Of a stretch of 64,000 nucleotides of DNA, positions 15,311 to 46,466 are shown one piece after another. The notes under the pieces were generated by a model, which had not been told where the DNA came from, did no database searches, and was given only the letters and a program-made list of their open reading frames with translations. The stretch lies in sequence record OR437326.1; one strand, written 5' to 3'. The position numbers were made by a program, and so were the translations under genes. Each line of letters opens with the position of its first letter. The stretch's first letter is position 1. The DNA comes from Escherichia phage iGC_PHA_EC001.

Positions 15311-15322
15311 ACTAATCTCCTC

Positions 15323-15796: not shown

Positions 15797-15809
15797 TTTT
15801 AGCTCCTTA

Positions 15810-17286: not shown

Positions 17287-17287
17287 A

Positions 17288-17893: not shown

Positions 17894-17908
17894 TACTTAT
17901 CTCCTCAC

Positions 17909-20395: not shown

Positions 20396-20495
20396 TATTA
20401 ATCCTTATTTTGTGAGTAGAACTATTATTCTACCTCTTCCAACCGAAAAAAGCTTTGAGGAAAATCAAAAAAGGCGCAAAGTGCGCCTTTAAGTT

Positions 20496-21914
20496 TTATT
20501 GTTTGGAGAGGAATTGTCTTCCCATGATCTTACCGTTCTTTACAGCGGTCCCATCGTGTCCATTATAATCCCAAGTTCCATCAATGTTACGCAAGAAGCT
20601 ATCACGAACAGTGTAGGCTTTACCGTTCTCTACTTTACTTTCTTCAACAATAATCGCCATAACAAGCTTATTTTCAATTTCGGTAGTAACCGATTCTTTA
20701 ATACCCTCTGTAACTTCACGATCATATTGGATATAAACTCGCTCCTCGGTCACTTGCACGTCTACCACATTTTTAAATGTGTATGTCTGCTGTGTAGTGT
20801 AAAGGACACGAACAACACTCTTCTTACCTACTGGCGGCTTCTTACGAGGCTTACGGTAACGTGGTTTAGGGTTGTTAGTTGGAAGCCAACCAACAATATC
20901 CCGCTCATATCCAACATGACCCCAAGTGAAATGCGTAGCCGATCCACTATCCGTAGTTCCGTCACGAAAGAGAACTTCTACGTGACCACCACAAGGGCGG
21001 TGTCCACCATTATTATAGTTGTATTTTGCCGTGCGCGGGAGAATGAAGTATTCTTTAATCGCCCACTCTTCCAGATTGTCGATATTCCAAGTGAATACTG
21101 TTCCCTTAGCAACATCTGTTTGACCATTGTTGAAGCGAACCTGCACGAAATCTTCTGAAGGCATAACACCTGTGTTCGGCAGATATTCAAATGCAGTATC
21201 TTCCGCTACAAACTGTTCTTCCTCTTGCTCCTCAATACTTGGCACAGGCGCAGCTTCATCGTATTTCGCAGCAAACATATTTTTAAATTCTTGGGCCGTG
21301 ACTTGTACAAGGCCGCGATCACCAGTAGCAGCAGAGTGTGGGCGTGGTAAATCCCCAACTTCAATATGCATTGCATCTAAACCTGCTTGACGATCAAAGA
21401 AGATAACCTTGCGGAATTGTTTATCTTTATATTGTGGCAGTTCATACATACTTGGGTCGATTGTCTTCAAACGTTCAGCATCTTCTGGCTTCCAGAAGCT
21501 TTTACCTGTTGCAAATCTAAAGTCTACCAGTAGTTTAACAACATCTCCTAATGATAAACTATCTGCATCTACGAAAACGTCTTCGATTCCCAATAACCCT
21601 GATTTCTTAAGAATCAGATCTAACATGTAACCTCCTGTGGTTTGTTCTGCGTCTGGATAACGATCAACACTGGTGCTGGTTACACCGTTTATTTCACCAG
21701 TGGAGGCATTGTAGGAAATATATGGGAAGGTCATATCGTTCATTGCAAAATCACCTGAACAGGTTGGATCATCTTCTCCCTCCCAGCCATACACCTTCAC
21801 AATACCTTCACACAATTTGTCATACACACCAGCGCGACGTGCTGCTTCAGCAACTTCCTGTTTACGGGCAAATTTATTAATCATGATTCCTCCTGTTAAT
21901 TGCCATAGATGCAC
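20496..21914 (-). CDS. hypothetical protein (472 aa)
   Basis: Long ORF; start may be Met11 (MINKFARKQ); no confident motif. Confidence 0.55.
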   Translation of the reverse strand: MHLWQLTGGIMINKFARKQEVAEAARRAGVYDKLCEGIVKVYGWEGEDDPTCSGDFAMNDMTFPYISYNASTGEINGVTSTSVDRYPDAEQTTGGYMLDLILKKSGLLGIEDVFVDADSLSLGDVVKLLVDFRFATGKSFWKPEDAERLKTIDPSMYELPQYKDKQFRKVIFFDRQAGLDAMHIEVGDLPRPHSAATGDRGLVQVTAQEFKNMFAAKYDEAAPVPSIEEQEEEQFVAEDTAFEYLPNTGVMPSEDFVQVRFNNGQTDVAKGTVFTWNIDNLEEWAIKEYFILPRTAKYNYNNGGHRPCGGHVEVLFRDGTTDSGSATHFTWGHVGYERDIVGWLPTNNPKPRYRKPRKKPPVGKKSVVRVLYTTQQTYTFKNVVDVQVTEERVYIQYDREVTEGIKESVTTEIENKLVMAIIVEESKVENGKAYTVRDSFLRNIDGTWDYNGHDGTAVKNGKIMGRQFLSKQ

Positions 21915-22434
21915 GAGGTTCGGCTATGGCTGTTGCATAAATATATGGATGACCTTGTGGGGACAATCTTGTTCCGAATGACCCTAATTCTAAACCATTC
22001 ATGTCTTCCACGTCAAGCCCTATTTCTGTTTCTACAATTCTTGTTTGGACTTTGTAGTAGGTCCAGAAGAAGTATCGCATTTCTTCGGCATACTCTTTCA
22101 CTTCACCAAAGCTGGGATAGAACTCAATCAACTCCAGCTTCAAGAAGATGTTGAAGTGAGAATCATCCAACACTTCCTCTGTGCGGTAACATGGTGTCAG
22201 GGCCATGTAGGGATGACCAGCGATAAACTCGTAGCCATCCTTTTCCATTTGCAAGAATGATTGCTCGGCACTGGCAACATAAAACTTCCCATTAGGATGC
22301 CCCAAAGGAGCATCTTCTTTGCCAGGTGGCAGTGTGAATGCCAAAATATCTGCATCCACTAAATAAGGAACATCTAACATTTCAGCAAAGCGTCCATAAC
22401 TCTGGATGGCTTCGGCAATCACACCTGTGTTCAT
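21877..22434 (-). CDS. hypothetical protein (185 aa)
   Basis: ORF-track ORF. Confidence 0.5.
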   Translation of the reverse strand: MNTGVIAEAIQSYGRFAEMLDVPYLVDADILAFTLPPGKEDAPLGHPNGKFYVASAEQSFLQMEKDGYEFIAGHPYMALTPCYRTEEVLDDSHFNIFLKLELIEFYPSFGEVKEYAEEMRYFFWTYYKVQTRIVETEIGLDVEDMNGLELGSFGTRLSPQGHPYIYATAIAEPRASMAINRRNHD

Positions 22435-22682
22435 GACCTTCCTCCTGTGCGAAACGCACGTTTAGTAATGCTGGACATAATGATTAAATCTTGTAAAGTC
22501 ATATCTGGGAACTGTTGTTCTAAAACTCCCTCAACAGCACCTATAATATCTGATAATTCAACAAGTTGCATTATTTTGCAATCCTGTTCAACAGCATCAA
22601 AAAGTTCTTCTACTTCCTCTTTAATCTTTTCTATGCTGCCATAAGGTTGTTTCTTAATGTCTGTTATGTGATACCCCGCCAT
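22431..22682 (-). CDS. possible MazG-like nucleotide pyrophosphohydrolase domain protein (83 aa)
   Basis: EKIKEEVEELFDAVE..ELSDIIGAVEGVL resembles the EExxE..D helical motif of MazG/HisE-like enzymes; weak. Confidence 0.4.
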   Translation of the reverse strand: MAGYHITDIKKQPYGSIEKIKEEVEELFDAVEQDCKIMQLVELSDIIGAVEGVLEQQFPDMTLQDLIIMSSITKRAFRTGGRS

Positions 22683-24275
22683 TTAACGATCCTCTCTGAT
22701 TTGATTAATCTTACGAGCAAGGGCAGCTATAAGCTTATCTTCTTCGGATACAGGAGCCGTGCTCTTACCTAAACGATGCATGTCTAGAATCTCTTGAACA
22801 GTCCGGTTCCATTGTAGACATTTAATACAACGTGTATGTGCAACATACAGAAGGTTTCGTTCTGATTCTTCAAGACCTACCCACTCACCCTTCTTATCAT
22901 AATTAGAAGGAAAGTCATTTGCAACAATAACCTGATCCCACTCCAAACCTTTTGATTTGTGGGCTGTAGTTAAAGTAACTTTAGCCGTTGGAGAGTTACG
23001 GTGCATACGTAAAGTATATGCAATATTATTAGCTTTACCAGAAACAACAATGTTTAAAAGTCGTTTTGCATCAGGATCTGATTCTGCACACTCTACAAAT
23101 TCTTCCCAAGAAGTGTAAGGGAGAACTGTCTCATGCTTAACTTTGTCCAAATCACCTCTACGTAAAGCATTAACACTATCAACCATAGAAATGAAATCTT
23201 TGGTATCTACGTTAATAATAATCTCTTCTCCGTTAGCGATTCGGTCCATAGCTTCGAGCAACAGAGTCAAATTCTTACGGAAAATAATGGTGTAAGGTTT
23301 ACTATAATCTACCACATCAGAATGAAAACTTCCAGTGACAGTATCATAACCTTTGCCTACCAGCGGATGCTTCAGAGGTGAACGATCAGAAAGGATCGCA
23401 TTAGCAATTTCCGCAACTTTAGGACCAAAGCGAAAACAAGCTGTCAGAGGCAACTCAACCCCATATGTAGCCGTTTGCTTCATCATGTTCTGGCTTCCAC
23501 GGAACTGATAAATACTCTGAAATTCATCACCCACAACAACAATACGTTTAGCCGATTTAGCATTGCGAAGGATAGACAGGAATGCAGGGTTAACATCCTG
23601 GAATTCATCTCCGAAAATAATATCATATCCTAAGTCTTCTTTGCTCAATTCAAATAGTTTCACATAGGTGTCATGAGTCATAATTGTTTCTGATTTAGGA
23701 TCAATACGCTCACGCCAAAGTTGCTTCGCATATTTAACAACTTCGTTAATAAGTTTTTGTTCGTTGATGTTTTTACGTTTTAGGTCTGACATGTGCACTT
23801 TAGGAAAATGTTTATGTCCAATATGTTCATCGTCAGAAAACTCATATTTAGCTAAAGTTTGTTTTACCATTAACCCGATCATTGCACGAGTCAGTAGCAC
23901 TTTACCATTCTTATCGATCAAGTTCTGAATCTTGAATTTCTTGGCAATCTCACTACCAGTTCCAGCTACGTTAACATATTGACCTTCTGGACGAGATAAT
24001 TTGTGTCGAAGGTTTTGTGGAAGACGCTGGTAACAGATTGAATGTAGCGTTCGGCACATAACGTTAGGCGGCATTTTACGCCGAGCTTCCTCTGCCATAC
24101 TTTTGTTAAACGCCAAGTATAGAATACTATCATTTGTGCCATTAGCCAACATATACAGTGTTGACGTTTTACCTGATCCAGATTTAGCTTGAATTGTAAC
24201 GAAACGATTTTCTTTATACCCGCTTTCAATAGCGTATTGTTCCTCGGTAGGTGTAAAACTCAATTGTGTAGACAC
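22683..24275 (-). CDS. SF1 DNA helicase (Dda/RecD/UvrD-like)
   Basis: Walker A AKSGSGKTST, IIFGDEFQD, VVVGDEFQSIYQFRG, LTTAHKSKGLEWDQVIV. Confidence 0.75.
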   Translation of the reverse strand: MSTQLSFTPTEEQYAIESGYKENRFVTIQAKSGSGKTSTLYMLANGTNDSILYLAFNKSMAEEARRKMPPNVMCRTLHSICYQRLPQNLRHKLSRPEGQYVNVAGTGSEIAKKFKIQNLIDKNGKVLLTRAMIGLMVKQTLAKYEFSDDEHIGHKHFPKVHMSDLKRKNINEQKLINEVVKYAKQLWRERIDPKSETIMTHDTYVKLFELSKEDLGYDIIFGDEFQDVNPAFLSILRNAKSAKRIVVVGDEFQSIYQFRGSQNMMKQTATYGVELPLTACFRFGPKVAEIANAILSDRSPLKHPLVGKGYDTVTGSFHSDVVDYSKPYTIIFRKNLTLLLEAMDRIANGEEIIINVDTKDFISMVDSVNALRRGDLDKVKHETVLPYTSWEEFVECAESDPDAKRLLNIVVSGKANNIAYTLRMHRNSPTAKVTLTTAHKSKGLEWDQVIVANDFPSNYDKKGEWVGLEESERNLLYVAHTRCIKCLQWNRTVQEILDMHRLGKSTAPVSEEDKLIAALARKINQIREDR

Positions 24276-36298: not shown

Positions 36299-36322
36299 CA
36301 AATGATAATGATTCGCATTTAG
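36299..36322. promoter_or_regulatory. Fur-box-like palindromic motif, copy L1
   Basis: aatgataatgattcgcatttag; compare E. coli Fur box consensus gataatgataatcattatc. Confidence 0.35.
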
Positions 36323-36357
36323 GTTTATAAATGAGATTGATTCTTATTTGATAAGGT

Positions 36358-36388
36358 AAATGATAATCATTCTCATTTAGAGAATGAC
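36358..36388. promoter_or_regulatory. Fur-box-like palindromic motif, copy L2
   Basis: aaatgataatcattctcatttagagaatgac; near-perfect dyad. Confidence 0.4.
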
Positions 36389-36903: not shown

Positions 36904-37012
36904 GGTGTCGCCCTTTCTTTGTTGTGCGCCCTGGTTGGCGCGGTAGAAAGATGATAGCCCTTTCCTTTATATATAGCAAGCAAAAAGAAAATAAAAAAGA
37001 TTGAAAAAGTGG

Positions 37013-37070
37013 TTGACGTTCGCCAGGTGGCGGCATAATATTTACCACGTAGCGCGGCAATGGTGCCGCT
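37013..37070 (+). promoter_or_regulatory. early promoter plus 5-prime stem-loop cassette 1
   Basis: ttgacg-N17-cataat then gcggcaatggtgccgc hairpin; RBS; ATG 37091. Confidence 0.6.
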
Positions 37071-37090
37071 CACTATTTGGAGTTAAGATC

Positions 37091-37288
37091 ATGGCAACAT
37101 TGCACATTGTGGCGAAAGCTGGACAAATCAACGTAATAGTAAACGGTTTTACTGAGTTCAGTCATCCCCAGGATGATCATGAAACGGTTTTATCTTTCAT
37201 TGATTCCCTGTTAGAAATGGGAGTCATTACAGAAGACCAGCACGCTACAAAATGCAAGCGCGTTAATCAAATTGCAGGGATAGAATAA
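37091..37288 (+). CDS. hypothetical protein (65 aa)
   Basis: Trimmed to MATLHIV downstream of cassette 1. Confidence 0.5.
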   Translation: MATLHIVAKAGQINVIVNGFTEFSHPQDDHETVLSFIDSLLEMGVITEDQHATKCKRVNQIAGIE

Positions 37289-37294
37289 AAAGTA

Positions 37295-37353
37295 TTGACA
37301 ACAAACAACAACCTGATAAGATGTATCACATAGGGCGGGAAGTGGTTTCCCGC
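37295..37353 (+). promoter_or_regulatory. early promoter plus 5-prime stem-loop cassette 2
   Basis: ttgaca..ctgataagatgtatcacata gggcgggaagtggtttcccgc; ATG 37379. Confidence 0.6.
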
Positions 37354-37378
37354 TCGTAACAGAAGAGAGATTATCATC

Positions 37379-37651
37379 ATGGCATCATATAGCGCAACAA
37401 TGATCGTAGCTGGCACAACTGGTAAACCTATGAGCGGTGTCGGATCTTTCGCTAATATCAATATTGACGGGCGTTTATCCCTGGACGCAGCGATTGCCAT
37501 TGCACGGGAAACATTTAAGAAAGAATGTAATTTCAACAAGCAAGATTATCTCGGTTTCGCTATTGAAAAAACCGCGCGCTTTGTTGATTATAAAAGCCCG
37601 AAAATGGTTGATACTACACTAAAAGCGCAAGATGTAGCGTTTTTGCTTTAA
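37379..37651 (+). CDS. hypothetical protein (90 aa)
   Basis: Follows cassette 2 with RBS agagagatt. Confidence 0.55.
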   Translation: MASYSATMIVAGTTGKPMSGVGSFANINIDGRLSLDAAIAIARETFKKECNFNKQDYLGFAIEKTARFVDYKSPKMVDTTLKAQDVAFLL

Positions 37652-37654
37652 GGC

Positions 37655-37710
37655 TTGACATTAACGAATAATTTGTTAATATGTTACATAAAGCGGGAAT
37701 AGTTCCCGCT
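37655..37710 (+). promoter_or_regulatory. early promoter plus 5-prime stem-loop cassette 3
   Basis: ttgaca-N17-taatat, gcgggaatagttcccgc; ATG 37728. Confidence 0.6.
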
Positions 37711-37727
37711 ATTTGTAAGGTGGTAGA

Positions 37728-37985
37728 ATGTTTTACATCAAATTAAAAGGTCACGTGATCGCGTTCAAAGATAACGCTTTTTACAGATTAGCAAAATATG
37801 CGTTAATACATCCCCACTATGTTTATATAAGGGGGCGTGACGAAATAAATATCTTTGATCAAACAACATGCGAAAACATCGAGATCCGCAAGGTTGGCGT
37901 ACGTGATTATCGTACATCTTTCTACCCTTGCAAGGATTCAGCAAGTCTTTTTAAGGTATGTCAATTGTTGAAAAAAGGTGGTTAA
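37728..37985 (+). CDS. hypothetical protein (85 aa)
   Basis: Follows cassette 3. Confidence 0.55.
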   Translation: MFYIKLKGHVIAFKDNAFYRLAKYALIHPHYVYIRGRDEINIFDQTTCENIEIRKVGVRDYRTSFYPCKDSASLFKVCQLLKKGG

Positions 37986-37986
37986 T

Positions 37987-38544
37987 ATGGGCCGCGAATA
38001 TGTGATCCAGTCTTGGGTAAAACATGAAGCAGATGATCCGCGCATCATTCCCGATCATCTTATCGATGAATCCACGGGATATAGCGGTGAGCAAATAGGT
38101 AACAGATTAGCACGTAGTAACGGCAACATAAAAGCGCGTTATGTGCGCCCTGGCTGGCTGGCAAATGGTAACGCTGATTTATCCAGTGCGGAAGATGCGA
38201 GCGACGGCGCGAAAGATAATCCTTTGTACAAAATTGATCCGGCTTTTCGTGTCCTGGATGAATACCCCAGCAAGATAGCGGCGCTTGATGAAGCATTGGA
38301 AAGTAAGCGCATCTCCTGGACCGCTTACAACATGGCAAAAAACGTACTTGATGGTAAATTGATTCAAGCTGAAAGAAAATTAGCCAAAATTGCAGCCATA
38401 GCCCAGGAGGAAGACGAGGAGACAACGGAAGAGGAAGAGTACGAAGAGATCCCGCCGTTGTTGTGTGTTGATGCTTTTCCTGATTATCAGCCGACAGAGG
38501 AAGAAAAAAGGATCGCACTAGAAAACTTTGAAAATAGTCTTTGA
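37987..38544 (+). CDS. hypothetical protein with acidic C-terminus
   Basis: Trimmed to MGREYVIQ (RBS aaaggtgg). Confidence 0.5.
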   Translation: MGREYVIQSWVKHEADDPRIIPDHLIDESTGYSGEQIGNRLARSNGNIKARYVRPGWLANGNADLSSAEDASDGAKDNPLYKIDPAFRVLDEYPSKIAALDEALESKRISWTAYNMAKNVLDGKLIQAERKLAKIAAIAQEEDEETTEEEEYEEIPPLLCVDAFPDYQPTEEEKRIALENFENSL

Positions 38545-38599
38545 CATATCGCCGCCACTGGCATAATATTTACCACGTAGGGCGGCAATGGTGCCGCTC
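38541..38599 (+). promoter_or_regulatory. early promoter plus 5-prime stem-loop cassette 4
   Basis: ttgaca-N17-cataat, gggcggcaatggtgccgctc. Confidence 0.6.
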
Positions 38600-38626
38600 A
38601 TAGTGAAATTATGCAAGAGGTTTACA

Positions 38627-38722
38627 ATGATTGATAAAGAAAATAGCTTGACGGTTGGAACGATTAACGCTATCATTCTTGCCGTTCCATTTTGGATTGT
38701 ATTAGCGGCTATTATTTTCTAA
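38627..38722 (+). CDS. small membrane peptide (31 aa)
   Basis: Own translation MIDKENSLTVGTINAIILAVPFWIVLAAIIF after cassette 4. Confidence 0.35.
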   Translation: MIDKENSLTVGTINAIILAVPFWIVLAAIIF

Positions 38723-38731
38723 AAAATATTC

Positions 38732-38792
38732 TTGACAACGTTTTTTAATCTGATAAGATGTATCACATAGGGCGGCGGAATACTTCCCCGCC
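38732..38792 (+). promoter_or_regulatory. early promoter plus 5-prime stem-loop cassette 5
   Basis: ttgaca..ctgataagatgtatcacata gggcggcggaatacttccccgcc; ATG 38814. Confidence 0.6.
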
Positions 38793-38813
38793 AAAACAAA
38801 AAAGGGTAACACA

Positions 38814-39176
38814 ATGAGCAAGCAAATCAATACTATCATGTTTAATCTGGTATCTTTCCGCGATGATATGAAAAATTTACCACGTGAAACGGTTGATATT
38901 CATGTTTCAGCTTATCGCGCCCTTATTGATATGTTACCGCTAAAACGTGATCAACATGCCGCTAATATGATGCTTAATGCTATGCTTAAAAAGATGATTC
39001 AAACGGATCTTACTCTGGCGTATGAGTATCAAGGGCGCTTATATGCTACTTACAACAAAGCGGTACCTGGTCTGGGAAGTACCGAAGAGTTGCACGGCTT
39101 AAACCTGGATCAAAACACTTGGGATAGTATGCGCCGCGTTATGGTATGGGCCGAAAGCGGTAAAATTTACGAATAA
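38814..39176 (+). CDS. hypothetical protein (120 aa)
   Basis: Follows cassette 5. Confidence 0.55.
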   Translation: MSKQINTIMFNLVSFRDDMKNLPRETVDIHVSAYRALIDMLPLKRDQHAANMMLNAMLKKMIQTDLTLAYEYQGRLYATYNKAVPGLGSTEELHGLNLDQNTWDSMRRVMVWAESGKIYE

Positions 39177-39182
39177 AAACGG

Positions 39183-39240
39183 TTGACACTGTTTAAAATT
39201 CTGGTATAGTTTATCACGTAGGGCGGCAATGGTGCCGCCA
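39183..39240 (+). promoter_or_regulatory. early promoter plus 5-prime stem-loop cassette 6
   Basis: ttgaca-N17-tatagt, gggcggcaatggtgccgcc. Confidence 0.6.
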
Positions 39241-39259
39241 ATAATGAAAGGTTAACATC

Positions 39260-39439
39260 ATGGCTATCATTGCAAAAACTGAGATTATAGGTTTAGATCC
39301 GATCCTCCTGGCTTATGAGGAAACTTTAAAAATGTATGTAGTGACCTATGGTGATTATGTGCGTGAATACGAATACATTGATCTTGCTTTCGAATGTTAC
39401 ATTCGCCAGGTCAATAAAGCCTATAACGATTATCGTTAA
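39260..39439 (+). CDS. hypothetical protein (59 aa)
   Basis: Own translation MAIIAKTEIIGLDPILLAYEETLKMYVV.. after cassette 6. Confidence 0.5.
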   Translation: MAIIAKTEIIGLDPILLAYEETLKMYVVTYGDYVREYEYIDLAFECYIRQVNKAYNDYR

Positions 39440-39450
39440 AAGTTTTAGTC

Positions 39451-39487
39451 TTATACTATTGACAATGAGTGATAGTATAAGCATAAT
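39451..39487 (+). promoter_or_regulatory. sigma70-like promoter with flanking 9-bp inverted repeat (operator-like), no stem-loop
   Basis: TTATACTAT-ttgacaatgagtg-ATAGTATAA then cataat; upstream of gene 39535. Confidence 0.45.
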
Positions 39488-39534
39488 AACTTTTATCGGG
39501 AATACTCCTAACTAATCAAAAGAGATTAAAGACT

Positions 39535-39900
39535 ATGGCTAAAAATATCAATGTTTCTGCTTATGCTACCCTGGCTAACACTGCTAAAATTGAACTATCC
39601 AGCATTGAAGCGGTACATATTAGCGCCCGTCGCTGGTTTCAAAAGTCTTATGGTAATACTTATTTCTCTTTGATGGTTGACGTTGAGATCGGCGGTAAAC
39701 TGATCGAAGTGGTTAACGTTCCGTTTCAATATGGCTATGGGGATCATTTTGATACCGTCGCCCTAGAAGAGTTTAGCAAGGTTATCAACCTGGAAGGTAA
39801 AGAGTTTTCAAATTATGCCTACCTTTCCCGTTTTTGCCGTGACAATGGGATCACTGTATACAGTCATGCGAGCGATGTAAAACGTAAAAAAGATTTATAA
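39535..39900 (+). CDS. hypothetical protein (121 aa)
   Basis: ORF-track ORF, RBS aaagag. Confidence 0.55.
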   Translation: MAKNINVSAYATLANTAKIELSSIEAVHISARRWFQKSYGNTYFSLMVDVEIGGKLIEVVNVPFQYGYGDHFDTVALEEFSKVINLEGKEFSNYAYLSRFCRDNGITVYSHASDVKRKKDL

Positions 39901-39905
39901 AAAGC

Positions 39906-39965
39906 ATTGACAGCACGAATAAAAAGAGTAAACTGTATTACATAGAGAGCGGGAACACTTCCCGC
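39906..39965 (+). promoter_or_regulatory. early promoter plus 5-prime stem-loop cassette 7
   Basis: ttgaca..gtaaactgtattacata, gcgggaacacttcccgc; ATG 39990. Confidence 0.6.
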
Positions 39966-39989
39966 CTCACTGAAAAAGAGAGAAAAATC

Positions 39990-40229
39990 ATGGCTAAATC
40001 TAAAATGTACAACGGTCACAAAAACAAAACTCATTGGAATGTAAGCCTTTGGATTAATAACGATGAATCGTTATACCGGTTGGCCCAAGATTTTATTAAC
40101 GCTAATGCTAATCGTAATGATGCGGCGCGGGATATGATGCTTTTTCTGGAACAAACTGGACAAGATAAAACGCCAGACGGTTTCAAATATAGCACTACTG
40201 CGATCCGTGCCGCGATGGTTGGAATGTAA
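39990..40229 (+). CDS. hypothetical protein (79 aa)
   Basis: Follows cassette 7. Confidence 0.55.
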   Translation: MAKSKMYNGHKNKTHWNVSLWINNDESLYRLAQDFINANANRNDAARDMMLFLEQTGQDKTPDGFKYSTTAIRAAMVGM

Positions 40230-40238
40230 TAAAAACAG

Positions 40239-40298
40239 TTGACAACGTTTAAAATTAGTGTAAGATGTATCACATAGGGCGGGAAGTGGTTTCCCGCC
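40239..40298 (+). promoter_or_regulatory. early promoter plus 5-prime stem-loop cassette 8
   Basis: ttgaca..gtaagatgtatcacata gggcgggaagtggtttcccgcc; ATG 40320. Confidence 0.6.
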
Positions 40299-40319
40299 AA
40301 AACAGAGAGATTAAAGATT

Positions 40320-40547
40320 ATGGCTATCAATATTGTTCGCGTATCCGGCACCGTTGGCACTTCCCAGGTTATTGCAGTTGTAACAAACAAAAAGATTAAT
40401 GATGTATGTGAGATCTTGAATAAGTGGGCTATTGCTAATTTTGGGGAATATGCAAGCGTCGAGTACATCGAATCCTACCAGGTGCCAACCATCAGCCTAA
40501 CCGATCTCAACGTTGATCGCCTGTTATGCCTGGATGAATTGATCTGA
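40320..40547 (+). CDS. hypothetical protein (75 aa)
   Basis: Follows cassette 8. Confidence 0.55.
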   Translation: MAINIVRVSGTVGTSQVIAVVTNKKINDVCEILNKWAIANFGEYASVEYIESYQVPTISLTDLNVDRLLCLDELI

Positions 40548-40556
40548 AAAAGATTG

Positions 40557-40614
40557 TTGACACCGGAAAGAAAAAGAGTAAACTGTATTACGTAGGGCGG
40601 CAATGGTGCCGCTC
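40557..40614 (+). promoter_or_regulatory. early promoter plus 5-prime stem-loop cassette 9
   Basis: ttgaca..gtaaactgtattacgta gggcggcaatggtgccgctc; ATG 40638. Confidence 0.6.
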
Positions 40615-40637
40615 ACAACAAAAGAGAGATTATTACG

Positions 40638-40850
40638 ATGGCTAATATCCGCACACTGTTAAAAAATGCAAGTCAAGTTTTATTTTCTGATCACGATCAT
40701 TTTAATAAAGATATTACAGGCGTGAAGAATATCAAAGATGTAAAAAGTGTTATGGGTATATATTGCAATGTTAAACGTGTTGGAACTTTCGGTGATAAAG
40801 TATTGTACCAATCAGGGGATTACAATTTTACTTTGACAATTATTTCATAA
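40638..40850 (+). CDS. hypothetical protein (70 aa)
   Basis: Follows cassette 9. Confidence 0.55.
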   Translation: MANIRTLLKNASQVLFSDHDHFNKDITGVKNIKDVKSVMGIYCNVKRVGTFGDKVLYQSGDYNFTLTIIS

Positions 40851-40856
40851 AACCGC

Positions 40857-40918
40857 TTGCAATCTTAATAAAATAAAGTAAACTGTATTACATCAAGGCG
40901 GCGGAATGGTCCACCGCC
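40857..40918 (+). promoter_or_regulatory. early promoter plus 5-prime stem-loop cassette 10
   Basis: ttgcaa..gtaaactgtattacatca ggcggcggaatggtccaccgcc; ATG 40943. Confidence 0.55.
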
Positions 40919-40942
40919 TAACAAAGAGAAGAGGAAAATATC

Positions 40943-41164
40943 ATGATCACTTTCGCTATTGTCGCCGTTGTCGCTGGTCAGGTTTACGTAAACGATACAT
41001 TCACCACAGAAGACAAGGCCGCAGGAGACATAACCGCCGTTTACAACGAGTGCAAGGCAGTAGAAAGGATGTTAGCGCCTTGTATGTTAATGAGTGAACG
41101 CCAGGACGGGATAACAGTGTTTACTAACATTGAAACAGGGTACCAAATGGTAGTAACAAAATAA
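40943..41164 (+). CDS. hypothetical protein (73 aa)
   Basis: Follows cassette 10. Confidence 0.55.
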   Translation: MITFAIVAVVAGQVYVNDTFTTEDKAAGDITAVYNECKAVERMLAPCMLMSERQDGITVFTNIETGYQMVVTK

Positions 41165-41167
41165 AGC

Positions 41168-41224
41168 TTGACACGGATTTAATTTTCAGTAAACTGTTAC
41201 ACGTAGGGCGGGAATAGTTCCCGC
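41168..41224 (+). promoter_or_regulatory. early promoter plus 5-prime stem-loop cassette 11
   Basis: ttgaca..gtaaactgttacacgta gggcgggaatagttcccgc; ATG 41243. Confidence 0.6.
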
Positions 41225-41242
41225 TAAAAAGAGAGAAAGACC

Positions 41243-41596
41243 ATGAAAGCACAAAATGCAATTAAAGAGTACATCCTTGCCGCTATCGATTTTAATGATT
41301 ACGGTATTACAACCGAAAAAGAGAAGATCGCGGAATTGATGCGCCGTTTTAATTCCGAGTACTGGTACCCTGATAATCAATCACGTTTTAATTATAGTAT
41401 TGTTAAAGCACTTGCATCATGGTTACAAGGCTTGCCATCAGATATTAACATAGCTTTCGAATATTGGGAAATTGATCGTTTGTTAACATCCTGGGGATAC
41501 ATTAAAGAGAATAGCAGCGATGATAAAATCCAACGAGAAAGGGAAAATTATTGGCTTTATATTGCAGGCGTGATCCTTGCTTGCTCTTATGAATGA
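41243..41596 (+). CDS. hypothetical protein (117 aa)
   Basis: Follows cassette 11. Confidence 0.55.
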   Translation: MKAQNAIKEYILAAIDFNDYGITTEKEKIAELMRRFNSEYWYPDNQSRFNYSIVKALASWLQGLPSDINIAFEYWEIDRLLTSWGYIKENSSDDKIQRERENYWLYIAGVILACSYE

Positions 41597-41602
41597 TAAA
41601 CC

Positions 41603-41657
41603 TTGACAATTTTACAAAACAGTTTAAATTAATAATATAGCGGCAATGGTGCCGCTC
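41603..41657 (+). promoter_or_regulatory. early promoter plus 5-prime stem-loop cassette 12
   Basis: ttgaca-N17-taatat, gcggcaatggtgccgctc; ATG 41676. Confidence 0.55.
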
Positions 41658-41675
41658 ATATAAAGAGGAAACAAA

Positions 41676-41822
41676 ATGAATACATCTAATCGCGCAGAAA
41701 AAATTCAATCTTCCAAGATCCGCAAGGCCTGGAACGAGGAAGTGATCCGCAAAGGCGACAAGCGTAATAAAACAAAGCGCGGGAAGAGTGACAAATATAA
41801 TTGGATGGATTTAGAGGATTAA
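41676..41822 (+). CDS. small basic protein (48 aa)
   Basis: Own translation MNTSNRAEKIQSSKIRKAWNEEVIRKGDKRNKTKRGKSDKYNWMDLED after cassette 12. Confidence 0.45.
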   Translation: MNTSNRAEKIQSSKIRKAWNEEVIRKGDKRNKTKRGKSDKYNWMDLED

Positions 41823-41829
41823 CATAACA

Positions 41830-41858
41830 AGGGCGCACCAAGCGCCCTTTCTTTTTAC
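41830..41858 (+). terminator. rho-independent terminator (repeated hairpin family, copy 1)
   Basis: agggcgcaccaagcgccct followed by ttctttttac. Confidence 0.65.
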
Positions 41859-41877
41859 ATGTAGAGGATAAACAAAA

Positions 41878-42063
41878 ATGACTTTAAACGAGCTTAAAAC
41901 AGCCTACAACGCAACATTAAAAATAGCCGTGCGTTACCGTGACGAATACGGTTTTATTGCGCAGGGCGTTATCCTGGGCTTTTCTGACGATGGTTTGATC
42001 TATGTTGATGCACATCACAACAAGGTTAAACCGGAAAACGTTATCAGTATAAAATATCTTTAA
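41878..42063 (+). CDS. hypothetical protein (61 aa)
   Basis: ORF-track ORF, RBS agaggataa. Confidence 0.45.
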   Translation: MTLNELKTAYNATLKIAVRYRDEYGFIAQGVILGFSDDGLIYVDAHHNKVKPENVISIKYL

Positions 42064-42068
42064 AAGTG

Positions 42069-42128
42069 GTTGACACCATAACCGGACCTGTTAAACTGTA
42101 TTACATCAGGCGGGGAATAGTTCCCACC
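42069..42128 (+). promoter_or_regulatory. early promoter plus 5-prime stem-loop cassette 13
   Basis: ttgaca..gttaaactgtattacatca ggcggggaatagttcccacc; ATG 42148. Confidence 0.55.
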
Positions 42129-42147
42129 ATACAAAAAGGTAAATATT

Positions 42148-42354
42148 ATGATCACCGCAAAACAAGAAAAAATCATTATCGACGTTGCAGCCGTAGCCGC
42201 TATTGCTATTATCGGTACCTACTATGACACCGCGCGTCCTTCCTCCTTGCATGAGATCGCCGCCGTTGCATCAGTTGGCGTACTGTTTTACGTTGGTAAA
42301 CGCTATTTATCACCAATGATTAACAAGCTGACACCGTGGAAAAATAAAGGTTGA
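42148..42354 (+). CDS. small membrane protein (68 aa)
   Basis: Hydrophobic segment AAVAAIAIIGTYY; follows cassette 13. Confidence 0.5.
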   Translation: MITAKQEKIIIDVAAVAAIAIIGTYYDTARPSSLHEIAAVASVGVLFYVGKRYLSPMINKLTPWKNKG

Positions 42355-42405
42355 TCCTGTTTTATATTGTGTTATAGTTATCGTGTAGGGCGGCAATGGT
42401 GCCGC
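42351..42405 (+). promoter_or_regulatory. early promoter plus 5-prime stem-loop cassette 14
   Basis: ttgatc..ttatagttatcgtgta gggcggcaatggtgccgc; ATG 42426. Confidence 0.5.
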
Positions 42406-42425
42406 GCCCCTTTGAGGATGCAATC

Positions 42426-42710
42426 ATGAGTAAAGCTAACACCGTGCTAATGTTTTCCCTGATTAATGATCCCGCTTACTTGTCCAACATGACGCAGGAG
42501 GGTAACACATTAACGGCAACATTCACCAATAAGCTTGACCGAGTGATCATCATCTCACTGAAAACAGTTAGTAAAGGCTTTTACTCGTTAGCTTATCATT
42601 GGATCACTGATACCGATGAGACAAGCCAGGACTATAGCGCCCCTTTCCCTGAATCAATGGCACGGGAGATCATCGCCGCCGTTGTAAATGATGGTTTGTT
42701 TACTGGATAA
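42426..42710 (+). CDS. hypothetical protein (94 aa)
   Basis: Trimmed to MSKANTVLMF after cassette 14. Confidence 0.5.
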   Translation: MSKANTVLMFSLINDPAYLSNMTQEGNTLTATFTNKLDRVIIISLKTVSKGFYSLAYHWITDTDETSQDYSAPFPESMAREIIAAVVNDGLFTG

Positions 42711-42728
42711 AATAATTCAGAAAAAGGC

Positions 42729-42785
42729 TTGCAATCATTTTGGGATAATGTATATTTAATGCATAGGGCGGCGGGAATAGTTCCC
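42729..42785 (+). promoter_or_regulatory. early promoter plus 5-prime stem-loop cassette 15
   Basis: ttgcaa-N17-tatatt..gcata gggcggcgggaatagttccc; ATG 42809. Confidence 0.5.
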
Positions 42786-42808
42786 AAAGCAAACGAGAGG
42801 ATTACACG

Positions 42809-42928
42809 ATGAGCAAGTACACAGTAGAATACACGGTAGAGAATCCGGCAGTATCCGAAGGTAAAAAGATGACATTTGCCATCAGTATAATCGCTTTCGT
42901 TGTCACTATCTTATCAATCATCTTATAA
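42809..42928 (+). CDS. small membrane peptide (39 aa)
   Basis: Own translation MSKYTVEYTVENPAVSEGKKMTFAISIIAFVVTILSIIL. Confidence 0.4.
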   Translation: MSKYTVEYTVENPAVSEGKKMTFAISIIAFVVTILSIIL

Positions 42929-42938
42929 GGTGCACACC

Positions 42939-43100
42939 ATGAAAACAACAGATATTATCAAAGAGATCGCCCTTGCCGCTGACGTTGAGATCGAGGAAGT
43001 GATCGCGCTCAATCTTACAGAAAACGATCTGCGCAACTATGAAGCGGAAAGCGTGAAAGCAAGTGGCGCGGTCCTGGCATATAATCCGGCTAACAAATAG
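42939..43100 (+). CDS. hypothetical protein (53 aa)
   Basis: Trimmed to MKTTDIIKEIA. Confidence 0.4.
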   Translation: MKTTDIIKEIALAADVEIEEVIALNLTENDLRNYEAESVKASGAVLAYNPANK

Positions 43101-43101
43101 T

Positions 43102-43159
43102 TTGACAAGCTGAATCAACCTGATAAGATGTATCACATAGGGGCGACAAGCGCCCCGCC
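43102..43159 (+). promoter_or_regulatory. early promoter plus 5-prime stem-loop cassette 16
   Basis: ttgaca..ctgataagatgtatcacata ggggcgacaagcgccccgcc; ATG 43181. Confidence 0.6.
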
Positions 43160-43180
43160 TAACAGAAGAGAGAAAAAATC

Positions 43181-43459
43181 ATGACCATCGTTAAATTAAC
43201 AACCGAAGAAATGAAAACAATGTTAACCACTAATTTACAAAATTGGAAAATTGGTGTTGACGTTGAAACAGTGTGCAAGTTGAACGACAAACTAACACCG
43301 GACGACATTGAAACGATCATCCGTGCAGATTTCTATGATGCTTTATACGATGATTCCACAGTCCTTGAAACGATGTTGGATAACGCTTGGATCAATCCCG
43401 ATTTGGCGGCTTATGGTCATCTTGCCTTTGAAGCCATCCATAATGTTTATAATCGTTAA
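43181..43459 (+). CDS. hypothetical protein (92 aa)
   Basis: Follows cassette 16. Confidence 0.55.
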   Translation: MTIVKLTTEEMKTMLTTNLQNWKIGVDVETVCKLNDKLTPDDIETIIRADFYDALYDDSTVLETMLDNAWINPDLAAYGHLAFEAIHNVYNR

Positions 43460-43469
43460 GGGGGATAAC

Positions 43470-43580
43470 ATGAATCCGAAAGATATGCAAGCATGGAAAG
43501 GGTACGACGATCTAAGCGCCTTGCGCAATAAGTCAAGCCGTAACCTTAGACGGTTGGAAGCAAAGAAAAAGAAAAAATAG
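43470..43580 (+). CDS. small basic protein (36 aa)
   Basis: MNPKDMQAWKGYDDLSALRNKSSRNLRRLEAKKKKK with RBS aagggggat. Confidence 0.4.
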   Translation: MNPKDMQAWKGYDDLSALRNKSSRNLRRLEAKKKKK

Positions 43581-43581
43581 T

Positions 43582-43640
43582 TTGACAAGTCCGCCTAGTC
43601 TGATAATATGTATCTTGTAGGGCGGCAATGGTGCCGCTCA
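43582..43640 (+). promoter_or_regulatory. early promoter plus 5-prime stem-loop cassette 17
   Basis: ttgaca..ctgataatatgtatcttgta gggcggcaatggtgccgctc; ATG 43659. Confidence 0.6.
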
Positions 43641-43658
43641 CAAGAAGAGAGAAAAATC

Positions 43659-43943
43659 ATGAAAATAACAAAAAGCCTAACTAATTATGCAGCACGTCGC
43701 GGATTATGTTTAACCGTTGAAAACTTAGGGAAAGAAGACTTTTTGTGTTTTTGGGAGCTTGAAAATGATTGCGAGTGGATGTTTTCTTATTCTATCTGCG
43801 AAGATCAAAACGGTTGTTTGTTAACCTGGCGCGGTAATATCTATTTACCGGAAGAAATCAAAGAGGAACTACCAGGCACGATCATGACTGAGAAACAGCT
43901 TAAGGAAGTGATCAATTTTGTAGGGCAAAACATTAAAAAATAA
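43659..43943 (+). CDS. hypothetical protein (94 aa)
   Basis: Trimmed to MKITKSLTNY after cassette 17. Confidence 0.55.
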   Translation: MKITKSLTNYAARRGLCLTVENLGKEDFLCFWELENDCEWMFSYSICEDQNGCLLTWRGNIYLPEEIKEELPGTIMTEKQLKEVINFVGQNIKK

Positions 43944-43947
43944 TAAT

Positions 43948-44011
43948 TTGACAGTAGGCAAACAACGTAGTAAAGTTTATTACATAGAGCGGCGGAATGG
44001 TCCACCGCTCA
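43948..44011 (+). promoter_or_regulatory. early promoter plus 5-prime stem-loop cassette 18
   Basis: ttgaca..gtaaagtttattacata gagcggcggaatggtccaccgctc; cassette ATG at 44031 opens only an 11-codon frame. Confidence 0.55.
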
Positions 44012-44050
44012 CAACAGAAGAGAAACAAATCATGATCCCGACTATGTTTT

Positions 44051-44362
44051 ATGTATCGCGCAAAGGTTAATCTCGTTGGTTATCTGACAGATGAAACTAT
44101 CCGTAAAAATTGGCGTAATGCTGATTTACTGGCTTGCTTATTGATTAATAGTGTCGCTGATGCTTTCCAGTGTGAAACAGCCGAGAGCCTGGAGGCAAAC
44201 TTGTTCGACAATATGGATCAAGCCATTGAAACCTATATTCAATCAAATTTAGATAGCTGGAACAGTAAAACATGGCCTGACAGCTTACGCGATACAACTG
44301 ATCAACTGATCCGCCTTGCCCTGATGGTTGAACGCGATAACGTTTACAACCGCACAAAGTAA
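44051..44362 (+). CDS. hypothetical protein (103 aa); start ambiguous (possible frameshift relative to cassette ATG at 44031)
   Basis: ORF-track ORF; the RBS-positioned ATG at 44031 is in another frame. Confidence 0.45.
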   Translation: MYRAKVNLVGYLTDETIRKNWRNADLLACLLINSVADAFQCETAESLEANLFDNMDQAIETYIQSNLDSWNSKTWPDSLRDTTDQLIRLALMVERDNVYNRTK

Positions 44363-44935: not shown

Positions 44936-44965
44936 AAGGGGCGCACTAAGCGCCCTTTCTTTTTG
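44936..44965 (+). terminator. rho-independent terminator (repeated family, copy 3)
   Basis: aaggggcgcactaagcgccctt followed by tctttttg. Confidence 0.65.
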
Positions 44966-45926
44966 CCTGAATAATGTTGATAGATTCCGCCTATGGAAAA
45001 CAGACACAGAACAAAACTGAATAAATAGCGGTATCAAGCTAATCAACCATTAAACGAATAACCATACCTCCCAGGGTAACAGGCTGTTAGAGAGCCATTT
45101 ATAGCGGTTAAAATCGATCAACAACCAACAACAAACCATCAAAAACACCCTTTTACCTCCTTTCTAGTGCAATGATAACCATTATCATCTATCCATGTTT
45201 ATCTATGCAATATAAGTGCATAACTATAATGTTGATAATAGTTCGCAACAACTAACTAACCAACAACCTAAAACAATAAGCAAACTAATCATAATCAAAG
45301 GAATAATAGCAAGATGATTGATAACGACAAACAATCAAACCATGATGAATACTAAGCAAGATAACGATAACACGACAAAACAACCAACTAACGAACAATA
45401 ACAAACGAAACCATTAAAATAATAACTATTAGCAAAATAGTGCCTGAATGAAATCATTACAAAACGAATCATTCCCAGGATCATCATTAGCACGCTATGC
45501 CGGACACATAGCGAGCTAATAATAAGCCAACTACACCCCAACAATCATAACCATCGGTGATGGTTATTTCTTGTTACTGCGTAGCTTGCAATAATTGCAA
45601 GCGTAATGACGCTTACACTTATTGCGCTGGCTTATTATTAGCATTATATGTAATTACCAAGATCATAACATTAGCGCAATAACAATAATCATTGTAGTAA
45701 TTACAAGATGAAATCATTAGCAAGATGAATAATTGCACGTAGCAACATGAGCGAATAGCGACAGGTTGCATAGTGTGCACATAGTGTATAAACATACAGG
45801 AAAATAAAGGCTAATCTTTTGGGGGCGAATACTATCGCGTAGCGATATGTTGAGCATCTTCTCTTAAACGTAAATAAAATCAGAAAATTCTTGATTTATT
45901 TTAGTTTTTATGTTAATAAACGTTTA

Positions 45927-45948
45927 AATAATAATCATTCTCATATAA
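45927..45948. promoter_or_regulatory. Fur-box-like palindromic motif, copy R1
   Basis: aataataatcattctcatataa. Confidence 0.3.
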
Positions 45949-46105
45949 ATAATAGTCTGCTTGTCATGAGCGGGATCAGTTGACAATGTTCCGTCATATG
46001 ATGAGGTTGCCAAACCATTGATAAATAAGTGTTTGTGTGATTTATAATCAAGTGGCCCACCTTGTCGCTACGTTGGCATGAGCCTTGCATAAGTCATTGA
46101 ATACG

Positions 46106-46127
46106 AATGATAATTATTCTCATTCGC
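46106..46127. promoter_or_regulatory. Fur-box-like palindromic motif, copy R2
   Basis: aatgataattattctcattcgc. Confidence 0.35.
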
Positions 46128-46466
46128 ATGATATTTGGGAATTGTCGCTGCGTGGACCTGACGGCCCGAAAATTCGCGTTAAGCACTTCTTACGTATGCG
46201 CCATGATTTTTTGCCATATGATATTGATTCTATTAGATATTCTTGCCATGATTGCCATGAAACAGGGTGTGTCGAAATAATCTCTCCCCGTAGATATTTT
46301 GGGTTACTTTTTATACAAGAGTGGGGTGTCAAAAATAATCGGTATATATGGGATAATTGATAGGAATCCCCTATGATAATTCTATTGTAATTCCCTAAGA
46401 TCGATCGTATGATGTTGGTGATTGATGATTGCCATGAAAGATGGCTAACGATGAGAGGAGATTATC

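Follow-up and report, generated by a model that had tools for sequence, protein, structure and literature searches.

A repeated promoter and stem-loop cassette in a small-gene array of a phAPEC8-like phage

The 64,000-nucleotide stretch of Escherichia phage iGC_PHA_EC001 analysed here (OR437326.1; hereafter the window) carries on its plus strand an array of small genes in which a unit of ~85 bp, composed of a promoter, a GC-rich hairpin and a translational leader, is repeated ahead of one gene after another. By reading the sequence and aligning the units we count 19 plus-strand copies between 37013 and 44031, and a single copy on the minus strand (15085-15010) ahead of a gene for a TerC-family membrane protein. 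In a megablast search the region 37000-44100 matched 213 phage records, the top one being Escherichia phage tuntematon (Phapecoctavirus, Stephanstirmvirinae) at 98.3% identity, in a match that is broken into three pieces and spans 10.7 kb of the tuntematon genome; from this match, we take the window to be a segment of a phAPEC8-like virulent myovirus of ~150 kb. The genes of the array (37013-44031) are small and mostly of unassigned function: the ten array proteins that we tested gave PHROGs matches without assigned function, and one matched DUF7249.

A repeated unit ahead of small genes

An earlier note on this DNA, likewise made from its sequence, had described 18 promoter and stem-loop cassettes between 37.0 and 44.0 kb, each driving one small gene. 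The array is real, and its plus-strand count is 19. A pattern scan of the kind proposed in that note, run here over the 64-kb window (TTGACA with at most one mismatch, a spacer of 16-18 nt, TAnnnT, and, beginning 6-16 nt past the -10, a hairpin whose stem has 5 bp or more, 4 or more of them GC pairs), matched 14 plus-strand copies and one minus-strand copy, 15 in all, against a chance expectation of 0.46 +/- 0.75 on both strands from dinucleotide shuffles of the whole window, and of 0.03 from shuffles of the region. The five copies missed have either a weaker -35 (TTGCAA, TTGATC) or an imperfect stem. A profile hidden Markov model (HMM) built from the 20 copies recovers precisely those 20 in the 64 kb at E <= 1, and finds no further cassette in the remainder of the tuntematon genome (96 kb); nor did we find hairpins of the family without a promoter ahead of them. 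The element is confined to one early array and the single copy at TerC. Scanning IMG/VR with a pattern of promoter plus half-hairpin returned about five contigs, all from the same phage group.

All spans in the array begin at the first base of the -35 and lie on the plus strand. Cassette 1 (37013-37090) pairs a TTGACG at 37013 with a -10 TAATAT at 37036-37041 and a hairpin core GCGGCAATGGTGCCGC at 37054-37069, ahead of a gene for 65 amino acids (aa; 37091-37288), whilst cassette 2 (37295-37378), with TTGACA, a TG-extended -10 TAAGAT at 37317-37322 and the hairpin GGGCGGGAAGTGGTTTCCCGCTC (37333-37355; z = -2.8), precedes a gene of 90 aa (37379-37651). Two genes follow cassette 3 (37655-37727; hairpin AGCGGGAATAGTTCCCGCT, 37692-37710), one of 85 aa at 37728-37985 and, coupled to it, one of 185 aa at 37987-38544. 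Behind cassette 4 (38541-38626; GGGCGGCAATGGTGCCGCTC, 38580-38599) stands a gene of 31 aa (38627-38722), and behind cassette 5 (38732-38813), whose hairpin GGCGGCGGAATACTTCCCCGCC (38771-38792) has one bulged C, a gene of 120 aa (38814-39176). Cassette 6 (39183-39259; GGCGGCAATGGTGCCGCC, 39222-39239) leads into a gene of 59 aa at 39260-39439. The seventh copy (39459-39534) is degenerate, consisting of TTGACA-N17-CATAAT and a hairpin remnant of 4 bp (GGGAATACTCCT, 39498-39509), and is recovered by the HMM at E = 0.0015; its gene encodes 121 aa (39535-39900).

The DUF7249 protein, of 79 aa (39990-40229), is encoded behind cassette 8 (39907-39989; GAGAGCGGGAACACTTCCCGCCTC, 39945-39968), and proteins of 75 aa (40320-40547) and 70 aa (40638-40850) behind cassettes 9 (40239-40319; GGCGGGAAGTGGTTTCCCGCC, 40278-40298) and 10 (40557-40637; GTAGGGCGGCAATGGTGCCGCTCAC, 40592-40616, z = -3.5). 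Cassette 11 (40857-40942) has TTGCAA as its -35 and a hairpin with a 1x1 internal loop (AGGCGGCGGAATGGTCCACCGCCT, 40896-40919, z = -3.6), before a gene of 73 aa (40943-41164). Genes of 117 aa (41243-41596) and 48 aa (41676-41822) follow cassettes 12 (41168-41242; GGCGGGAATAGTTCCCGCT, 41207-41225) and 13 (41603-41675; AGCGGCAATGGTGCCGCT, 41639-41656). The hairpin of cassette 14 (42070-42147; GGCGGGGAATAGTTCCCACC, 42109-42128) is imperfect, one or two extra C in relatives restoring the pairing, and its gene encodes 68 aa (42148-42354). In cassette 15 (42351-42425) the -35, TTGATC, overlies the upstream stop codon; a TG-extended -10 TATAGT and the hairpin GGGCGGCAATGGTGCCGCGCC (42388-42408) lead to a gene of 94 aa (42426-42710).

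The last four units are more varied. Cassette 16 (42729-42808), again with TTGCAA, has a weak hairpin (core GGGAATAGTTCCC, 42768-42790) and serves genes of 39 aa (42809-42928) and 53 aa (42939-43100); cassette 17 (43102-43180) has a different hairpin (GGGGCGACAAGCGCCCC, 43140-43156, z = -3.1) and serves genes of 92 aa (43181-43459) and 36 aa (43470-43580). Cassette 18 (43582-43658), ahead of a gene of 94 aa (43659-43943), carries GTAGGGCGGCAATGGTGCCGCTCAC once more, at 43617-43641. Cassette 19 (43948-44031; GAGCGGCGGAATGGTCCACCGCTC, 43987-44010), which had been thought to drive a small gene, now drives a 12-codon remnant of an open reading frame (ORF; 44032-44070) made by a deletion. In the region 44032-44362 the downstream gene, truncated at its N-terminus by that loss of ~3.1 kb, is still readable from an out-of-frame ATG at 44051 (103 aa).

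The lone minus-strand copy (15085-15010) has TTGACA at 15085-15080, TAAGAT at 15063-15058 and the hairpin GCGGGGAATAGTTCCCCGC at 15045-15027 (z = -4.1). It drives, as had been proposed, the gene at 15009-14035, whose ATG lies at 15009 and whose product of 324 aa matches Pfam TerC at E = 3e-40.

The proposed rule of one cassette per small gene holds for 14 cassettes; the remaining ones serve two genes, and five ORFs (starting at 37987, 41878, 42939, 43470 and 44051) have no cassette of their own, each standing behind another gene.

Anatomy of the cassette

Each unit opens with an A-rich tract, over the 30 nt upstream, in which the stop codon of the previous gene (TAA, TAG or TGA) lies 1-12 nt before the -35. 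The promoters are near-consensus sigma70 promoters: the -35 is a perfect TTGACA in 16 of the 20 window copies and in 102 of the 125 unique copies gathered from relatives, and the -10 takes the forms TAAGAT, TAAACT, TAATAT and TATAGT (mostly TAAnnT), with an extended TG in 36%. The spacer, previously given as 17 bp, is 16 nt in 79% of copies and otherwise 17 nt. Past the -10 comes a conserved stretch, (G/T)TA(T/C)(C/T)AC-R-TAG, then the GC-rich hairpin of 6-10 bp with a loop of 3-5 nt, and finally a purine-rich leader of 15-27 nt between hairpin and ATG, predicted to be unpaired and holding a Shine-Dalgarno (SD) sequence of the AGAGAG or GAGG type.

The hairpin begins 8-14 nt past the -10 in all 20 copies, and a GC stem of 5-10 bp is present in 19 of them. 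Of the hairpins given a gggcgg-loop-ccgc form in the earlier note, that of copy 39459 is degenerate and those at 42070 and 42729 are imperfect. At position 8 past the -10, 87% of copies have a purine, and in 76% the base before it is C; we place the predicted transcription start at this purine because of its pyrimidine(-1)/purine(+1) context and the usual sigma70 distance. Transcripts would then begin with 0-5 unpaired nt (median 3) ahead of the hairpin, within a 5' untranslated region (UTR) of 38-51 nt. Folds of six representative UTRs gave z = -2.8 to -4.1 against dinucleotide shuffles, the hairpin being dominant and the leader open in each.

A side effect of this anatomy concerns gene calling. 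The hairpin loop AATGG includes an ATG, at which genes begin in mechanical ORF lists and in part of the GenBank annotations of relatives (38588; 42396, giving 42396-42710; tuntematon gp030), and such starts lengthen the predicted proteins into the cassette. The ATGs next to the SD, at 38627 and 42426, are the more likely starts.

Structure and sequence of the hairpin

Is it the fold of the hairpin that is kept, or its sequence? We surveyed 213 cassettes from the window, seven Phapecoctavirus arrays, phAPEC8, phi92 and the IMG/VR contigs, with 65 distinct hairpin cores among them. Across the survey the lower stem, GGGCGG/CCGCYC, is conserved in sequence, as are the preceding TAG and the loop motif AAUGG or AAUAG. 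The upper stem takes at least five self-complementary forms, namely CA/UG, GAA/UUC, GAAR/UUUC, GGA/UCC (with a 1x1 mismatch beneath) and a separate GGGGCG/CGCCCC type. With their own arms the hairpins fold at a mean of -13.0 kcal/mol, compared with -9.6 kcal/mol when the left arm is joined to the right arm of another variant. In orthologous copies, point changes fall chiefly in loops or preserve pairing, as with A-U to G-U exchanges and the C insertion that restores a pair in the 42070 hairpin.

An alignment-based approach gave less: MAFFT followed by RNAalifold on the 20 cassettes produced just 4 consensus pairs, as loops and stems are not all of one length, and we used per-sequence folds and the arm-swap comparison instead. 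Covariation, which the earlier note had put forward as a check, is seen in the upper stems, which differ between copies and stay complementary. For the upper stem only, structure rather than sequence appears to be maintained.

A homologous early array in Vequintavirus naswa (12500-23000) extends the comparison to another subfamily. Sigma70-consensus promoters stand before most of its small genes, and ~8 of the ~20 are followed by a hairpin 10-12 nt past the -10, with stems that are partly unrelated (GGGGCAACAAGCCCC, GGGCAAAAGTGCCC, GGGAAAACTTCCC). The position of the hairpin is thus kept across two subfamilies while its sequence drifts.

These data bear on three other ways of reading the element. 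The inverted repeat could be a double-stranded DNA operator at +4 to +25, through which a phage or host repressor would shut all early promoters together; such a position is typical of an operator, and the GGGCGG/CCGCYC half-sites, the preceding TAG and the loop AATGG are conserved across the 125 unique copies. However, the gap between these outer halves ranges from 8 to 12 nt, which a rigid dimeric DNA-binding site would hardly fit and a folded hairpin easily would, the GGGGCGACAAGCGCCCC type and the Vequintavirus stems lack a common half-site whilst keeping the same offset, and changes in the inner stem are compensatory. We consider an operator distinctly unlikely.

Alternatively, the RNA hairpin could be the site of a dedicated phage RNA-binding factor, be it an antiterminator, a translational regulator or an endoribonuclease, which would make the early transcripts one regulon. 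The loop A-AUGG/AAUAG-U and the lower stem are indeed conserved across paralogues and between Phapecoctavirus and Justusliebigvirus, and many of the adjoining genes are of unknown function. Against such a factor stand loops that vary in length and sequence (UAG, AUGG, GUGGU, ACAAG, UAC), the lack of a candidate protein, of a boxA-like element beside the hairpins and of an Rfam match (none at the gathering score in the whole window, and only a chance-level one, E = 0.44, in 36.5-45.0 kb), and we find this reading quite improbable. A lambdoid nut site (boxA plus boxB) was considered and rejected, given that no cassette has a boxA-like element beside it, that the loops of 3-5 nt are varied and that the stems measure 6-10 bp.

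Finally, the hairpin may be a functionless passenger of a repeat that spread by duplication and gene conversion, with only promoter and SD under selection. Gene conversion among cassettes is frequent, and copy 39459 as well as about half of the Vequintavirus promoters presumably work without a hairpin. Yet complementarity is kept in at least five stem sequences, at a fixed offset and in two phage subfamilies, and the changes between orthologues described above mostly spare the pairing; a mere passenger is, in our estimation, the least probable of all the explanations considered.

Terminators and read-through

Within the array, a terminator scan found only two strong plus-strand terminators, both with T-runs. 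The first (41829-41857), with the hairpin AAGGGCGCACCAAGCGCCCTT at 41829-41849 followed by TCTTTTT, lies after the gene of cassette 13, and the next gene, at 41878-42063, has no cassette. The second (44936-44966), with AAGGGGCGCACTAAGCGCCCTTT at 44936-44958 followed by CTTTTTG, closes the early block.

Could the cassette hairpins serve a comparable purpose, as attenuators or terminators of transcription arriving from upstream cassettes, limiting the build-up of read-through over 19 tandem promoters? The cassette alone separates the genes, so that transcripts initiated upstream must cross the next hairpin, and an RB49 stem-loop of the kind discussed below cut lacZ expression like a strong terminator (PMC2839356). 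Nevertheless, each of the 20 hairpins comes after the -10 of its own cassette, such that an efficient terminator there would cut that cassette's transcript short at about +25; there is no U-tract, 16 of the 20 copies having 0-2 T in the 8 nt past the stem and the tract downstream being A-rich; and the phage possesses canonical terminators, hairpin plus T-run, at 41829 and 44936. The identification of the cassette hairpins as Rho-independent terminators was rejected for want of the U-tract. Attenuation as their purpose seems to us unlikely, if the least so of the alternatives, and from their sequence we do not think that these hairpins are merely terminators of upstream genes; they might still attenuate read-through transcripts in part.

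Crossovers within the unit

The units are dispersed direct repeats that share identical blocks of 12-20 nt in the -10/discriminator, the hairpin loop and the leader. Comparing 36.0-47.0 kb by BLAST with seven related arrays, and reading the breakpoints directly, we found joints that fall within the unit. ESCO25 lacks three genes (39990-40850), and what remains at the joint is a chimeric cassette, with the promoter of 39907 and the hairpin and leader of 40857, the crossover lying within the shared GTAAACTGTATTACAT. In ukendt and SKA64, the gene at 39260-39439 and the degenerate cassette 39459 are absent, and the promoter of 39183 runs into another hairpin type and the next gene, with the switch at CATCATGGCTAT. 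The window, in turn, lacks two tuntematon genes (gp037 and gp036), with a crossover in a stretch of ~20 nt that runs from the leader over the ATG into the first codons (GAAAAYATCATGATYACTTT).

Exchange is also visible in the cassettes ahead of orthologous genes. Among phages, gene 37379 is preceded by five hairpin types behind a nearly identical promoter, gene 44032 by three, and gene 40320 by four, one of which is a phAPEC8 hybrid, GAGCGGCGGAATGG|TTTCCCGCTC, with arms from two types and the switch inside the loop. Conversely, an identical hairpin is also found behind differing promoter halves. Promoter half, hairpin and leader can be reassorted like this only if cassettes recombine or undergo gene conversion with one another.

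A proposed modular expression cassette

Taking these observations together, we favour, with somewhat better than even confidence, the view that the units serve this phAPEC8-like phage as modular cassettes for early gene expression, whose 5' hairpin acts on the RNA and which recombine with one another. Each unit of ~85 bp would supply all that a small gene needs. The A-rich tract that holds the previous stop codon may play an UP-like role; the sigma70 promoter would be read by unmodified host RNA polymerase, and hence presumably early; and transcription would start at the conserved purine 8 nt past the -10, as predicted from the spacing, placing the hairpin 0-5 nt from the 5' end of the transcript. 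Homologous recombination among the units, as the comparison of phages shows, reassorts promoter halves, hairpins and leaders, and it deletes or inserts whole genes, which would leave expression intact.

What would the hairpin do at that place? Most likely it is a 5'-terminal stabiliser or insulator of the mRNA. Both RppH and the RNase E 5' sensor depend on a single-stranded 5' end, which explains why 5' secondary structure, as has long been known, stabilises mRNA (PMC3997798, citing Emory 1992, Bouvet 1992, Arnold 1998 and Bricker 1999). A base-paired 5' end would thus limit the access of both, and the hairpin would give all transcripts one 5' context, whatever gene follows. The 5' stem-loops of ompA and papA and the leader hairpin of T7 gene 10 act in this manner. 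Together with the open, purine-rich leader, it may also insulate the SD from the coding sequence that has been recombined in, a property that would suit a unit exchanged between genes. Shared RNA-level control of the early transcripts, as suggested in the earlier note, is plausible if the predicted starts are right. The ompA hairpin reportedly needs to be within 2-4 nt of the 5' end, from the work of Emory and colleagues, and the predicted tails of 0-5 nt would be compatible with this limit, if borderline for some copies. In the literature searched, we found no transcriptome or transcription start site study of Stephanstirmvirinae or Vequintavirinae.

Several observations weigh against this view, with regard to both the hairpin and the exchange of units. 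In naswa, ~10 promoters have no hairpin and run directly into a purine-rich leader, from which it follows that the hairpin is not needed for expression or for the promoter to exist. Covariation is limited to the upper 2-4 pairs; considering that lower stem, TAG and loop motif are conserved in sequence, some of what is conserved could be due to a protein site or to recent gene conversion. Strand asymmetry, in itself a weak test, gave a divided answer, the sense hairpin being more stable in 44 variants, less so in 21 and equal in 16, and in the GGA/UCC type it is the antisense strand that is more stable. Moreover, a start only 1-2 nt further upstream would leave a single-stranded 5' tail of 4-7 nt, which the 1992 work of Emory and colleagues is said to have found too long for protection.

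As for the exchange, some changes owe nothing to the cassettes. The module 43100-43460 (cassette 43102 with gene 43181-43459) is missing in two relatives, yet the junction falls exactly at a stop codon, with no cassette on the right side. Against all seven relatives the window is missing ~3.1 kb, or nine small genes (gp024-gp016 in tuntematon), through a deletion with its junction at 44058-44067, formed via a 10-bp microhomology, GCGCAAAGGT, inside two coding sequences and unrelated to the cassettes. Nor is the cassette array more plastic than its surroundings, since the cassette-free array of small genes at 46.4-53.5 kb is equally fragmented among relatives (3-7 BLAST pieces, 81-100% coverage); around TerC, a conserved region with one cassette, 64 of 72 records are colinear. 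The shuffling by cassettes that the earlier note had envisaged is therefore borne out by the chimeras of ESCO25, ukendt and SKA64 and by the hairpin swaps at orthologous genes, but not as a complete account: the cassettes serve as crossover points without being the sole source of plasticity. The weakest link of the modular-cassette reading is the function of the hairpin at the RNA level.

One further reading deserves mention. Through its conserved lower stem and A-AUGG-U loop, the hairpin might be recognised by a phage factor dedicated to it, which might be an RNA-binding regulator of an early regulon or else a recombination protein; in the second case the exchange of cassettes would be active, site-directed gene shuffling and not a side effect of general homologous recombination. 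An active role for a recombination protein has been speculated upon by Arbiol et al. for comparable elements (PMC2839356), and we accord this reading the same slim chance as the operator.

Relation to known phage modules

Those elements are the promoter-early stem-loops (PeSLs), known in the T4-type phages RB49/phi1, PST/T4 and nt-1/KVP40 (Arbiol et al. 2010, PMC2839356; Comeau et al. 2014, PMC4122927). The likeness to T4-type cassettes noted earlier is justified: PeSLs and phAPEC8-like cassettes alike are repeated intergenic units of ~50-100 bp, composed of a sigma70 promoter, an AT-rich tract with a stop codon, a GC stem-loop, and SD plus ATG, and clustered among small ORFans. In both, chimeric units are left at indels and crossovers occur in the hairpin loop, as seen in an RB49 mini-circle for the PeSLs (Arbiol et al., PMC2839356) and here in phAPEC8.

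The differences are equally instructive. PeSLs belong to T4-like phages, whereas the present cassettes occur in Stephanstirmvirinae and Vequintavirinae. The stem-loops of RB49 occupy five positions, mostly upstream of, between or over the -35 and -10, and those of PST and nt-1 lie just upstream, whilst the hairpins described here are fixed 8-14 nt downstream of the -10, without a U-tract, at the predicted 5' end of their own mRNA; in layout they can be likened to just one RB49 subclass, the rarest, termed 'downstream of the -10'. PeSL stem-loops terminate transcription in assays and PeSL mini-circles have been demonstrated, whereas our cassettes are known from their sequence alone, which argues against intrinsic termination. 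A blastn search ('distant') with one cassette found no similarity to PeSLs by sequence, the 60 listed of the 150 records hit, from the best to the weakest, all being 131-161 kb genomes of rV5-, phAPEC8- or phi92-like phages, with the RB49 PeSLs compared by description only. In the literature searched, we did not find the term PeSL used for rV5-, phi92- or phAPEC8-like phages, and the rV5 paper lists 33 promoters with hairpins unmentioned. The elements are thus PeSL-like cassettes in a different phage group, distinguished by a constant 5'-UTR hairpin and clear natural recombinants.

A promoter of another kind lies in tuntematon at 5612-5650, ahead of gp036, which the window lacks. There, TTGACT-N17-TATAAT is combined with an inverted repeat (ATAGCGCC/GGCGCTAT) that spans the -10, a layout that resembles the commonest RB49 PeSL subclass and not the window cassettes.

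Outside the PeSLs, the closest parallels are the leaders of ompA, papA and T7 gene 10, the last of which starts with a stem-loop (Mertens 1996, as cited in PMC6146998). As in these leaders, the cassette has a short stable hairpin a few nt from the 5' end, here a predicted one, then an unstructured leader and a strong SD, and its effect would be expected to depend on structure rather than sequence; unlike them, single leaders that were examined by experiment, it is a mobile unit repeated ~20 times and read from genomes. Lambdoid morons, in which promoter, gene and terminator stand between other genes, are likewise self-contained modules that come and go, as 43100-43460 does here, but they are mutually unrelated in sequence and bring their own terminator, whereas the cassettes share a common repeat and mostly lack terminators. 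In the GenBank record of phAPEC8 (NC_020079), parts of the unit have in fact been annotated: the segment from -35 to -10 as a 'host dependent promoter determined with MEME', and the hairpin 20-mer gtagggcggcaatggtgccg as a putative promoter, 'promoter determined with PHIRE'. In that record the hairpin is a second, phage-specific promoter, without a 5'-UTR stem-loop or a link to recombination.

If the modular-cassette reading is true, plug-and-play cassettes in the style of PeSLs are not peculiar to T4-like phages, and would instead be a recurrent solution by which large virulent phages express and exchange small accessory genes, here with one more design principle, in that every early mRNA would begin with a hairpin. 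The natural chimeras reveal that crossovers occur at homology blocks of 12-20 nt, and the cassettes mark predictable sites of deletion and insertion in phages that are engineered or passaged for therapy. They also explain mis-annotation, in that gene callers start ORFs at the hairpin-loop ATG and PHIRE calls the hairpin a promoter. Again if the reading holds, the units would offer compact, ready-made parts for E. coli, each combining promoter, 5' stabiliser and ribosome-binding site.

Flanking DNA and genome context

Between the 44936 terminator and the gene at 46467, the stretch 44960-46460 consists of ~1.5 kb of AC-rich, low-complexity sequence (caaccaacaacaaacc...) without a convincing ORF. 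Many GenBank records of relatives (ESCO5, ESCO37, dw-ec, BI-EHEC, ABPW7) begin 300-760 bp before window position 46400, and the stretch probably contains the physical genome end or a terminal repeat. From 46400 onward to 64000, small plus-strand genes follow in operon-style tight packing or with overlaps, and without cassettes.

A Fur-box-like palindrome, GATAATNATTCTCAT, has 10 matches with at most 2 mismatches, where 1.25 are expected. These are concentrated in the two non-coding stretches on either side of the array (36304-36376, 45172-45188, 45930-45944 and 46107-46123), and those at 36300-36381 form a 29-bp tandem repeat of 2.8 copies. The palindrome could be a host Fur site, a phage operator, or iterons of an origin or terminus.

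The window holds no tRNA genes in its 64 kb, and its nearest relative shifts along its length. Around TerC (13000-16400) this is the 'Acinetobacter' phage vB_AbaM_ABPW7, at 99.5%, with tuntematon at just 91.6%, whereas over the cassette array it is tuntematon at the 98.3% given above, a switch that indicates large-scale mosaicism among Phapecoctavirus genomes. Lastly, records labelled as phages of Campylobacter (B15, C3, A140), Acinetobacter (ABPW7), Klebsiella (ZCKP1) and Pseudomonas (PsgM04F) are 84-99% identical to coliphages of Phapecoctavirus, and their host labels look doubtful.

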